Shown piece by piece: positions 5,054-7,348 of a DNA stretch of 12,097 bases. The stretch lies in UHGV virus genome UHGV-0124803; one strand, written 5' to 3'. The first letter of the stretch is position 1; the number at the start of each line of letters is the position of its first letter. The notes below the pieces were generated by a model. It did not search any database and was not told where the DNA came from. It saw only the letters and a list, made by a program, of their open reading frames with translations. The position numbers were made by a program, and so were the translations under genes. The stretch comes from a virus.

Positions 5054-5266
5054 TTGAAGATAGTAACCAGAATGGAGGCCGCAAAAGCCGGGTTAAATCG
5101 CTATTTCACAGGAAAGCGGTGCCGTCACGGCCATCTCTCTGAAAGGTATGTTCTGAACGGAACATGTGTTGAATGTGCAATGAATAGCGCCAACCGCCAT
5201 CGTAATGAATTTGCTTGTGCACTAAAGAGTGCAAGAGGGGAAACCTATGGCAAGCAGCTGGATTAA
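5054..5266 (+). CDS. Small Cys/His-containing protein at the cII position (possible zinc-binding regulator); start TTG 5054 or ATG 5072
   Basis: ORF between the cro-like and O-like genes; pattern C-x-H-x-H ... C-x2-C (CRHGH ... CVEC); GGGG 8 nt upstream of the TTG; no resemblance to lambda CII recognised. Confidence 0.4.
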   Translation: MKIVTRMEAAKAGLNRYFTGKRCRHGHLSERYVLNGTCVECAMNSANRHRNEFACALKSARGETYGKQLD

Positions 5267-6077
5267 GGTTGAAGTTATCACTCCTGATAAACCTGAAATT
5301 TTTCAGATAGCAGAAATTCTGGGTATTGATCCAGATGCTGTTCTTGGAAAGCTGGTTCGTATATGGGCATGGGCTGACCAGCAAACAATAGACGGTAACG
5401 CTGGCAGCGTTACAAAAGGAGTACTTGATAGACTCGCTTTTATTACAGGATTTGCTGACGCCCTCATTAGCGTCGGATGGCTTGCTTATCATGACGGCAA
5501 ACTAATTCTTCCAAACTTTGAGCGACACAATGGAGAATCATCGAAAAAACGTGCACTTACGAATAGAAGAGTGGCAGAGCATCGAAAACGAGTAACGCAA
5601 AAAGTAACGCCAACAGCGTTACAAAAGGAGTTACCAGAGGAAGAGGAAGAGGAAGATATATATAAAACCCCACACATAGCACACGCGCGCGAGAGTGATC
5701 CGACCAGTGAAGCGAACGGTACGCCGTTGCAGGTGGCAGAACCTGCATTTCTGGATGGCCTGAGTGAACCTATTGGGAAATTTCCGATGATCGATGGCTG
5801 GCATCCATCGCCGGATTTTCGACGGCGTGCTGCGCTGTGGGGAACGGCCCTGCCGGAACCGGAATTTACACCTGCTGAACTTGCTGCATTCCGGGATTAC
5901 TGGATGGCTGAGGGCAAAGTGTTCACGCAGGTTCAGTGGGAACAAAAATTCGCCAGGCACGTAAATCATATCAGGGGAAAATCAAAAAACGTCGGGAAAA
6001 GCGATGAGCTTGACTGGAATAACACTGACTGGATAGAAGGGGTGTGGGATGAAATCAACTCCAGAACTTCTCAATGA
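5247..6077 (+). CDS. Replication initiator / replisome organiser (O-like function) with DnaT-like C-terminal domain
   Basis: ORF 5229..6077; ATG at 5247 has RBS AGAGGGGA; acidic linker (EEEEEED); the C-terminal W/F-rich segment resembles the DnaT-type domain; sits immediately upstream of and overlapping the P-like gene; contains the candidate origin repeats. Confidence 0.65.
   Translation: MASSWIKVEVITPDKPEIFQIAEILGIDPDAVLGKLVRIWAWADQQTIDGNAGSVTKGVLDRLAFITGFADALISVGWLAYHDGKLILPNFERHNGESSKKRALTNRRVAEHRKRVTQKVTPTALQKELPEEEEEEDIYKTPHIAHARESDPTSEANGTPLQVAEPAFLDGLSEPIGKFPMIDGWHPSPDFRRRAALWGTALPEPEFTPAELAAFRDYWMAEGKVFTQVQWEQKFARHVNHIRGKSKNVGKSDELDWNNTDWIEGVWDEINSRTSQ
5590..5668. repeat. Candidate replication origin: GTAACGC iterons plus GA-rich and AT-rich tract inside the O-like gene
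   Basis: GTAACGC at 5591-5597 and 5602-5608 (11-bp phasing), inverted GCGTTAC at 5615-5621; the 18-mer CAGCGTTACAAAAGGAGT recurs at about 5405 and about 5614 in different reading frames; followed by GAGGAAGAGGAAGAGGAAG and ATATATATAAAA. Confidence 0.4.
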
Positions 6078-6825
6078 GTACGATCGCTTACGTGAGCATG
6101 GTGTTGCTGTGCATGAAGAGCGGCGTGACAGCAATGGCAAAAAGGAGCAGGTCGCTAGAATTTTCAATGAACTATTTGTCCAGTTACAGGCTGCATTTCC
6201 TGCAAGCGTTTCGACCATAAGGGAGCAGAACAAACTTAATGAATTCCGTAAGCAATGGATGCTTGCGTTTCTGGAGAATGGGATCACTACAATGGAACAG
6301 GTTAACGCTGGTATGCGCCACGCCCGCGCCAGTGAATCTCCGTTCTGGCCGTCGCCAGGGCAATTTATCAAGTGGTGTAAAGACAGCAAGATGGTTCTTG
6401 GCGTCACCATTGACGATGTGATGGCGGAGTTTCACCGGTACAGCAAGGAAAAAAGTTTATATCCTGGTGGTCCCGAAAGATTCCCGTGGCGGCATCCGGT
6501 TATGTACTGGGTCGTATGTGATACCCGCCGTGCAATGTATCAGCGCCAGCTTAGCGAGATTGAGGTTGAGAAACATGCGCGCAGGCTGCTTGATGATTGG
6601 GCGAAAAAGGTGGCTTCCGGACAGCAGATACCCGATCCGGTGATCAGCATACAGGCAAAGCCAGAACCCATGAGTACGCCTCCGGACACAGGGAGAGACG
6701 TTTACCATCCACCAGGGCGAAGTTTCGGGTGTATGCCTAACGCCGCTACCCTGGGGGGAATAACACCGGCGCAGTGGCTGATGGAGGAATACAGGCGGGG
6801 AAAGGCGGCAGGATTTATCAAGTAA
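6049..6825 (+). CDS. Lambda P-family replication protein (helicase loader)
   Basis: 258-aa ORF; the segment FPASVSTIREQNKLNEFRKQWMLAFLENGITTMEQVNAGMRHAR...PFWPSPGQFIKWC closely matches lambda P as I recall it; overlaps the O-like gene by 29 nt. Confidence 0.85.
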   Translation: MKSTPELLNEYDRLREHGVAVHEERRDSNGKKEQVARIFNELFVQLQAAFPASVSTIREQNKLNEFRKQWMLAFLENGITTMEQVNAGMRHARASESPFWPSPGQFIKWCKDSKMVLGVTIDDVMAEFHRYSKEKSLYPGGPERFPWRHPVMYWVVCDTRRAMYQRQLSEIEVEKHARRLLDDWAKKVASGQQIPDPVISIQAKPEPMSTPPDTGRDVYHPPGRSFGCMPNAATLGGITPAQWLMEEYRRGKAAGFIK

Positions 6826-7287: not shown

Positions 7288-7348
7288 ATCGACGATCTTT
7301 TTAGTTATCAATGTAATCAATAAGTTATGTGGATAAGCGAGGGTAAAG

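Follow-up and report, generated by a model that had tools for sequence, protein, structure and literature searches.

The replication initiator gene of the prophage studied here carries short, regularly spaced DNA repeats in the middle of its coding sequence, and this raises the question of whether the gene houses the very origin at which its own product acts. We considered this question for the window, by which we mean the whole stretch of 12,097 nucleotides (UHGV virus genome UHGV-0124803) that was analysed, and for relatives of the gene in phages, viral contigs and bacterial genomes. The gene that hosts the repeats is 831 nt long, follows a repressor-like gene and a cro-like gene, and is overlapped at its end by a gene for a helicase loader resembling lambda P (Table 1). 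A small ORF at 5054-5266 (phrog_1081, function unknown) overlaps its start, and a small gene occupies the corresponding position in Enterobacter phage BUCT554 and in a Klebsiella prophage. Over the compared region, positions 5200-6100 are 99% identical to Escherichia phage TL-2011b. The Eru classification of Stx phages was considered as a lead and set aside: TL-2011b is not the Stx phage, and neither DnaT-type initiators nor the repeats figure in that paper.

The gene product matches phrog_2509, 'replication initiation protein' (E 1.5e-128), and Pfam DnaT (PF17948) aligns to residues 179-247 (E 9e-18). It is not a full-length E. coli DnaT (primosomal protein I), as the NCBIfam equivalog model gives 93.5 bits, below its cut-off of 201, and covers residues 171-252 only. 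The first 170 residues have no match in Pfam (E <= 0.01) or NCBIfam, and profile comparison of the N-terminal domain with PDB sequences gave no similarity to any of them. An AlphaFold2 model of residues 1-112 (pLDDT 79.6) combines a helix-turn-helix with a beta hairpin and closes with a basic helix (residues 99-111), from which a winged-helix fold is predicted for the domain. The family defined by the N-terminal domain is large, with 13,319 representative clusters (50% identity, E <= 0.001) and neither a Pfam nor an NCBIfam model of its own; it is nearly missing from plasmids, where two PLSDB records contain it.

Table 1. Positions of the initiator gene, its neighbour and the elements of the candidate origin in the window
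Feature	Position	Strand	Description
Initiator gene	5247-6077	+	276 aa; N-terminal winged-helix-like domain, origin-bearing linker (candidate), C-terminal DnaT-like domain
N-terminal domain coding region	5247-5582	+	aa 1-112; predicted winged-helix DNA-binding fold
GTAACGC copies	5395, 5592, 5604	+	
GTAACGC copies, inverted	5407-5413, 5616-5622	-	
GTAACGC, lone extra copy	3745		
Site A	5395-5413		perfect 19-bp palindrome GTAACGC-TGGCA-GCGTTAC, within codons 50-56 of the DNA-binding domain
Basic helix	5541-5585	+	SKKRALTNRRVAEHR; codons 99-113, directly upstream of site B; inferred recognition element
Site B	5592-5634		four half-sites: GTAACGC at 5592, GTAACGC at 5604, GCGTTAC at 5616, (GA)GTTAC at 5628-5634
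Polypurine tract	5636-5656	+	AGAGGAAGAGGAAGAGGAAGA; (GAGGAA)3, 21 nt, joined to the last half-site via GTTAC-CAGAG
AT-only stretch	5656-5667		ATATATATAAAA; 12 bp, candidate start of strand opening
Mosaic joint	5668-5672		just right of the AT stretch; similarity to relatives with another C-terminal domain stops here
GC-rich imperfect palindrome	5680-5697		CACACGCGCGCG/CGCGCGAGAGTG; right of the AT stretch, membership of the origin uncertain
Lambda-P-like helicase loader gene	6049-6825	+	overlaps the initiator gene at its 3' end; phrog_109 'P-like helicase loader'; Pfam Phage_lambda_P PF06992, E 1.7e-55

The repeats are built on the 7-mer GTAACGC, which occurs six times in the window, counting both strands, against 1.1 expected. 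At site B, the four half-sites follow one another in 12-bp steps, two direct and then two inverted, around a symmetry centre at 5613. The inner pair forms a perfect 19-bp palindrome, GTAACGC-N5-GCGTTAC (5604-5622), and the outermost half-sites (5592, and GTTAC at 5630) each lie 12 bp outside it. A pattern scan found GTAAC-N9-GTTAC at sites A and B and nowhere else in the window. An earlier note on this DNA had described phased GTAACGC repeats; these are real, but its coordinates were off by one, the spacing is 12 bp rather than 11 bp and the copy at 5395 had been missed. Its report of an 18-mer, CAGCGTTACAAAAGGAGT, recurring about 209 bp apart is confirmed: both copies, at 5405 and 5614, are exact, against a chance expectation of 0.01. 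The 18-mer is a portion of a 28-nt repeat, and the 209-bp offset puts its two copies in different reading frames (SVTKGV versus ALQKEL), again as had been claimed.

The gene contains six copies of GTAAC/GTTAC, a number that none of 5000 synonymous-codon shuffles reached (null mean 2.1), with protein and codon usage held constant. The count of GTAAC/GTTAC served as the statistic; the maximum 7-mer count was dropped, being contaminated by poly-Glu codons. The GTAACGC-type elements, six half-sites with two perfect 19-bp palindromes, are candidate dyad-symmetric binding sites for the initiator. No DnaA box lies within 1.6 kb of the repeats. A perfect DnaA box, TTATCCACA, is present at 7328-7336 (-), about 1.7 kb off and downstream of the P-like gene; across the window, DnaA-box matches with at most one mismatch are not more frequent than expected by chance. 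Helical phasing between sites A and B was considered as a sign of looping and rejected: the distances cluster at 207-209 bp, because the sequences are related, yet include non-integral numbers of turns.

Close relatives point to conservation of these elements at the DNA level. An alignment of the gene with its counterparts in Enterobacter phage BUCT554, two Rac-like E. coli phages and a Klebsiella prophage (66-93% protein identity) shows no change in the half-sites, whereas the 5-nt spacers and the third codon positions around them differ. It also shows that the GA tract and TATAAATA have been retained. In the Rac-like genes, a 12-nt insertion creates an extra GTAACGC at site A, and an extra GCGTTAC follows site B. 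More broadly, GTAAC-N9-GTTAC at both sites, together with the GTTAC-CAGAG junction, was found in all but one of 71 distinct viral-contig sequences, and the GTAAC-type relatives keep the arrangement with one to three palindromes plus extra half-sites. In the exception (IMGVR_UViG_2574180332_000004; L056:1501-2020), N-containing foreign sequence cuts site B after the first GTAAC, which may represent a disrupted origin or an assembly artefact.

Codon choice within site A leads in the same direction. Among 11 GTAAC-type genes, the codons for Gly50 (GGT), Asn51 (AAC) and Val55 (GTT) are identical in 55 of 55 pairs, compared with 15-36% of pairs for the other Gly and Val codons of the same genes. 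At site B, the frame in which the half-site is read differs between phages, giving V-T in the window and Gly-Asn-Ala in many of the distant relatives. These comparisons bear out the view that the region is conserved as DNA rather than as protein, and they support the conclusion that half-sites and tract are maintained, whatever the reading frame, throughout a very large family of phages.

The same layout extends to distant relatives with 33-57% identity, in phages of Pseudomonas, Xanthomonas, Xylella, Ralstonia, Vibrio, Cobetia and Salmonella (epsilon15). Here, a cluster of direct and then inverted half-sites at about nt 340-405 of the gene is followed by C(C/T)AGAG and then by a polypurine tract, often with a second half-site cluster closer to the 5' end of the gene. 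The arrangement recurs at an equal gene position across 197 distinct relatives, including those from Escherichia, Salmonella, Pseudomonas, Xanthomonas, Ralstonia and Vibrio phages. What changes between clades is the half-site itself, which is GTAAC(GC) in the clade of the window, GTCCGC in epsilon15 and phiPSA1, GTAGAC in Raharianne, GTCACA in Vibrio phages and GCGC-rich in further types. In each of three classes, sites A and B, about 200 bp apart, share one half-site, which argues for a single binding factor shared by both. Several clades lack site A, and site A is therefore not essential to the mechanism of the family.

The half-site class tracks the basic helix that follows an invariant HNG-x-SAK-x-R motif, and not the body of the domain. 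GTAAC is accompanied by a T-A-K-R-V-A-N-H type of helix, GTCCGC by R-K-R, GTAGAC by R-Q-A-R-W-R and the GCGC types by R-M. A natural swap illustrates this relationship: two relatives that are 80% identical over residues 1-96 (L204, GTAAC; L200, GTCCGC) differ in both helix and half-sites, whereas L204 shares its half-site with the window at 33% protein identity and L200 shares its own with epsilon15 at 39%. The helix is encoded less than 50 nt from site B, so part of this co-variation could reflect joint inheritance. A one-residue code, in which the residue after R108 would set the half-site, fitted the phage sample and failed in the wider set of representatives. Taken together, the co-variation suggests that the basic helix (residues 99-113) is the recognition element and determines specificity.

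Directly to the right of site B lies the longest + strand polypurine run of the window. The sole other homopurine or homopyrimidine run of at least 15 nt is CCCTTTTTTCTCTCTTTC at 861-878. At the position of the tract, (AGAGA)n is found in 126 of the 197 distinct relatives and (GAGGAA)n in 51, about 90% together; in addition, 128 of 146 newly listed cluster representatives from a whole-library search show the peptide footprint of the tract. Among relatives, (AGAGA)n is translated in all three frames, and the product is always a charged low-complexity linker. Copy number changes readily: relatives with 92-100% protein identity (the window compared with L001, L020, L025, L027 and L039) have two to five GAGGAA units, and TL-2011b has two where the window has three. 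The tract therefore behaves as a slipping in-frame microsatellite. The tract was also considered as a binding site for the DnaT-like domain, an idea that we rejected, as the tract is equally frequent where the C-terminal domain is not DnaT. Its presence regardless of the C-terminal domain or loader indicates that it belongs with the N-terminal family and not with DnaT or any one loader.

At the AT stretch, relatives keep TATAAATA or GATAT. The 20-bp segment starting at 5647 ranks fifth least stable as a duplex in the 12-kb window (z 2.85); at 40-60 bp, the surroundings of the AT stretch reach a z of about 2.2, which is unexceptional in the window. The GA-rich run and AT-rich segment noted earlier are both present, with two qualifications: the AT part is only 12 bp long, and it is the polypurine tract that is conserved next to the repeats.

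Further to the right, conservation is less uniform. In the window, 5668-5697 reads CCCCACAC...CGCGCGCG and is epsilon15-like, and an element like CGCGCGCG occurs in epsilon15 and others. In other clades (L003, L010, L011, L014 and L200), the tract is followed by C6-N4-C6 and then G5 motifs, coding PPxPP. Strong palindromes are found to the right of the tract in 14% of the sequences, compared with 3% of the control windows, an enrichment across the family too weak for a conserved lambda-style right-hand palindrome, which we did not retain as an element.

The mosaic joint falls in this same interval. By megablast, two matches (H8 and H9) span the N-terminal part only and one (H10) the C-terminal part only. 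The DnaT domain is present in 4 of 11 proteins tested, namely those of the window, BUCT554, VW-6S and epsilon15, and the partner gene among relatives is P-like, DnaC-like, DnaB-like or absent. These patterns suggest that the N-terminal domain and its binding sites travel as one specificity module and that the C-terminal domain would be swapped by recombination to the right of the AT stretch. A set of 116 complete E. coli genomes match 5622-5664 only, that is, the last half-site, the GA tract and the AT stretch, in otherwise dissimilar genes; these partial matches are consistent with 5622-5664 serving as a shared recombination joint.

We propose that 5592-5667, with 5395-5413 as an auxiliary site, is most probably the theta replication origin of the prophage, placed inside its own initiator gene. 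The layout in 197 relatives, the co-variation with the helix and the lambda-like position all favour the origin that the earlier note had placed in this gene, as far as sequence comparison can tell. In the mechanism we envisage, initiator dimers or higher oligomers would use the winged-helix domain together with the basic helix (residues 99-113) to bind the half-sites. The resulting nucleoprotein complex, possibly bridging sites A and B, would distort the DNA and open the adjoining polypurine/AT stretch, to which the DnaT-like C-terminal domain and the neighbouring P-like protein would deliver the host DnaB helicase, as lambda O and P do.

Three other explanations were weighed against this proposal. 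The repeats could be operators at which the initiator or another phage protein throttles transcription or translation of the gene, with replication starting elsewhere. Their dyad symmetry is typical of operator sites, site A lies in coding sequence distant from AT-rich DNA, and in iteron plasmids the binding sites of initiators often double as autoregulatory sites. An operator, however, leaves the near-universal polypurine/AT tract beside the last half-site without a role, whereas the position of the repeats agrees with that of ori-lambda, and an unsystematic look at the rest of the window brought up no other repeat cluster or unusual element. Autoregulation and origin function can moreover coexist, and we regard operators with an origin elsewhere as unlikely.

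It is also improbable that the conserved DNA is a recombination sequence at a module boundary, with a GA tract that merely codes for an acidic or charged linker (EEEEEE or repeating REEKR). Selection on the protein alone would not hold a pure-purine 5-nt period over distant clades and in three frames, and a boundary sequence leaves the half-sites, their dyad symmetry, the repetition at site A and the co-variation with the helix unexplained, even though it accommodates the loss of similarity just right of the tract, the swapped C-terminal domains, the E. coli genomes that match the last half-site and tract alone and the uniformly charged linker. Finally, we consider it very improbable that the palindromes act as hairpins (mRNA stem-loops, an antisense terminator or single-strand DNA hairpins) and not as double-strand protein sites: site B does fold as single-strand DNA (-8.8 kcal/mol, z -4.5), both palindromes fit a simple terminator pattern on the minus strand (5604-5622 and 5395-5413), and clade changes of the half-site preserve inverted symmetry in the manner of compensatory changes, but the T-run is unconserved in relatives, the palindrome region has no Rfam match, and hairpins require neither one sequence at sites A and B nor the three to five direct against one or two inverted copies seen in two relatives (L207 and L187).

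Beyond an origin within the initiator gene, we tentatively suggest that the periodic tract, joined through C(C/T)AGAG, might be a new strand-specific origin element, and that helix and site B might form a portable specificity unit; this extension is possible but rather doubtful. By analogy with DnaA-trios, the tract may be read as single-strand DNA during opening, by the initiator or by the loaded helicase. Exchange of a cassette of helix and site B may likewise create new replicon specificities within one protein scaffold.

Most origins of temperate phages are unannotated, and a simple rule (two direct half-sites and two inverted ones in an array, followed by C(C/T)AGAG and a polypurine tract) would locate the origin in a family that counts more than 13,000 representative protein clusters. 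Among its members are Uetakevirus (epsilon15-like) phages; it is found in about 2% of complete E. coli genomes and extends to phages that infect the plant pathogens Xanthomonas, Xylella and Ralstonia. An origin here would also explain where the mosaic joint lies in these initiator genes. The comparison points to a short basic helix as the determinant of specificity, for which natural swaps are available. Such origins could furnish compatible, orthogonal initiator/origin pairs for vectors, and the 5-nt periodic purine tract raises the question of what role such an element plays at an origin. We found neither a description of this origin nor an experiment on binding, unwinding or replication for any family member in searchable papers, a body of literature that leaves subscription journals mostly outside, so that an earlier mention is possible; the epsilon15 record (33679-37047) annotates repressor and IHF sites and nothing inside the initiator gene. 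A lambda-style origin in a large initiator family unrelated to lambda O does not appear to have been described.

How does this candidate origin compare with known systems? The Rac prophage of E. coli K-12, with its oriJ region, offers no precedent: its YdaU protein (DUF1376) was examined as a homologue and rejected (BLASTP E 0.26, hhalign probability 0.2%), since K-12 ydaU belongs to the unrelated DUF1376 family. A different allele, named 'ydaU' in phage record MN652886, is a member of the present initiator family. The middle of K-12 ydaU contains about five repeats resembling ATGTTCAAACA, some of them inverted (L006:4472-4578; NC_000913.3, about 1421471-1421577); these are candidate oriJ iterons, which would likewise place an origin in an initiator gene.

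In plasmids, iterons are 17-22 bp long, repeat directly in tandem and lie outside the rep gene, usually accompanied by DnaA boxes. The sites described here, unlike those of iteron plasmids (Rep_3), lie within the gene and are symmetric, the protein has no Rep_3 match and there is no DnaA box nearby. A partial likeness exists to the DnaA-trios and DnaD recognition element of oriC, where a short periodic motif on one strand similarly sits directly beside the last double-strand initiator site; unlike the trios, the period here is 5 or 6 nt and not 3, and the likeness is one of analogy only.

Closer in protein architecture is the DopC/DopE pair, a domesticated O-like/P-like pair of Cellvibrionales and Oceanospirillales (Brezellec et al. 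2017, PMC5509034). In both systems, a DNA-binding N-terminus is fused to a DnaT C-terminal motif, and a lambda-P-like protein follows. The N-terminus of DopC is an HTH_36 domain related to lambda O, and dopC has no iteron-like repeats, from which its authors infer that origin specification has been lost (PMC5509034). The present gene, unlike dopC, has a full repeat set, resides in a prophage and encodes an N-terminus with no match to HTH_36 in Pfam.

The closest parallel in layout is with lambda. In lambda gene O, the four iterons span nt 349-433, and to their right come ACAAAAGAAAAAAGAAAAGATTATT, also rich in purines on that strand, and a palindrome; in the initiator gene of the window, site B starts at nt 346, and the interval from site B to the AT stretch covers nt 346-421. 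As in ori-lambda, the candidate origin sits inside the initiator gene and directly follows the N-terminal DNA-binding domain (here after the predicted domain of residues 1-112 and before the DnaT domain of residues 179-247), dyad-symmetric sites are repeated with a purine-rich AT stretch to their right and a gene for a P-type loader next, and the N-terminal domain with its sites would form one specificity module to which an exchangeable C-terminal domain is attached. Origins corresponding to ori-lambda are also present in lambdoid phages such as P22 (gene 18). The two systems differ in that four 7-bp half-sites in 12-bp steps, two direct and two inverted, take the place of the four 18-bp tandem iterons of lambda; a second site lies 209 bp upstream; a strictly polypurine periodic run of 21 nt with 12 bp of pure AT forms the unwinding candidate, against about 40 bp of AT-rich DNA in lambda; and the C-terminal domain is DnaT-like. 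The N-terminal domain showed no similarity to lambda O by Pfam, and hhalign of the family profile against residues 1-120 of lambda O gave a probability of 0.1%, a weak test with lambda O as a single sequence. The term 'O-like' used earlier for this gene therefore fits its role and not its sequence. With a lambda-like layout and an N-terminal domain that lacks similarity to lambda O, the initiator and its candidate origin would work like ori-lambda while standing apart from the lambda O family (Phage_rep_O/HTH_36).
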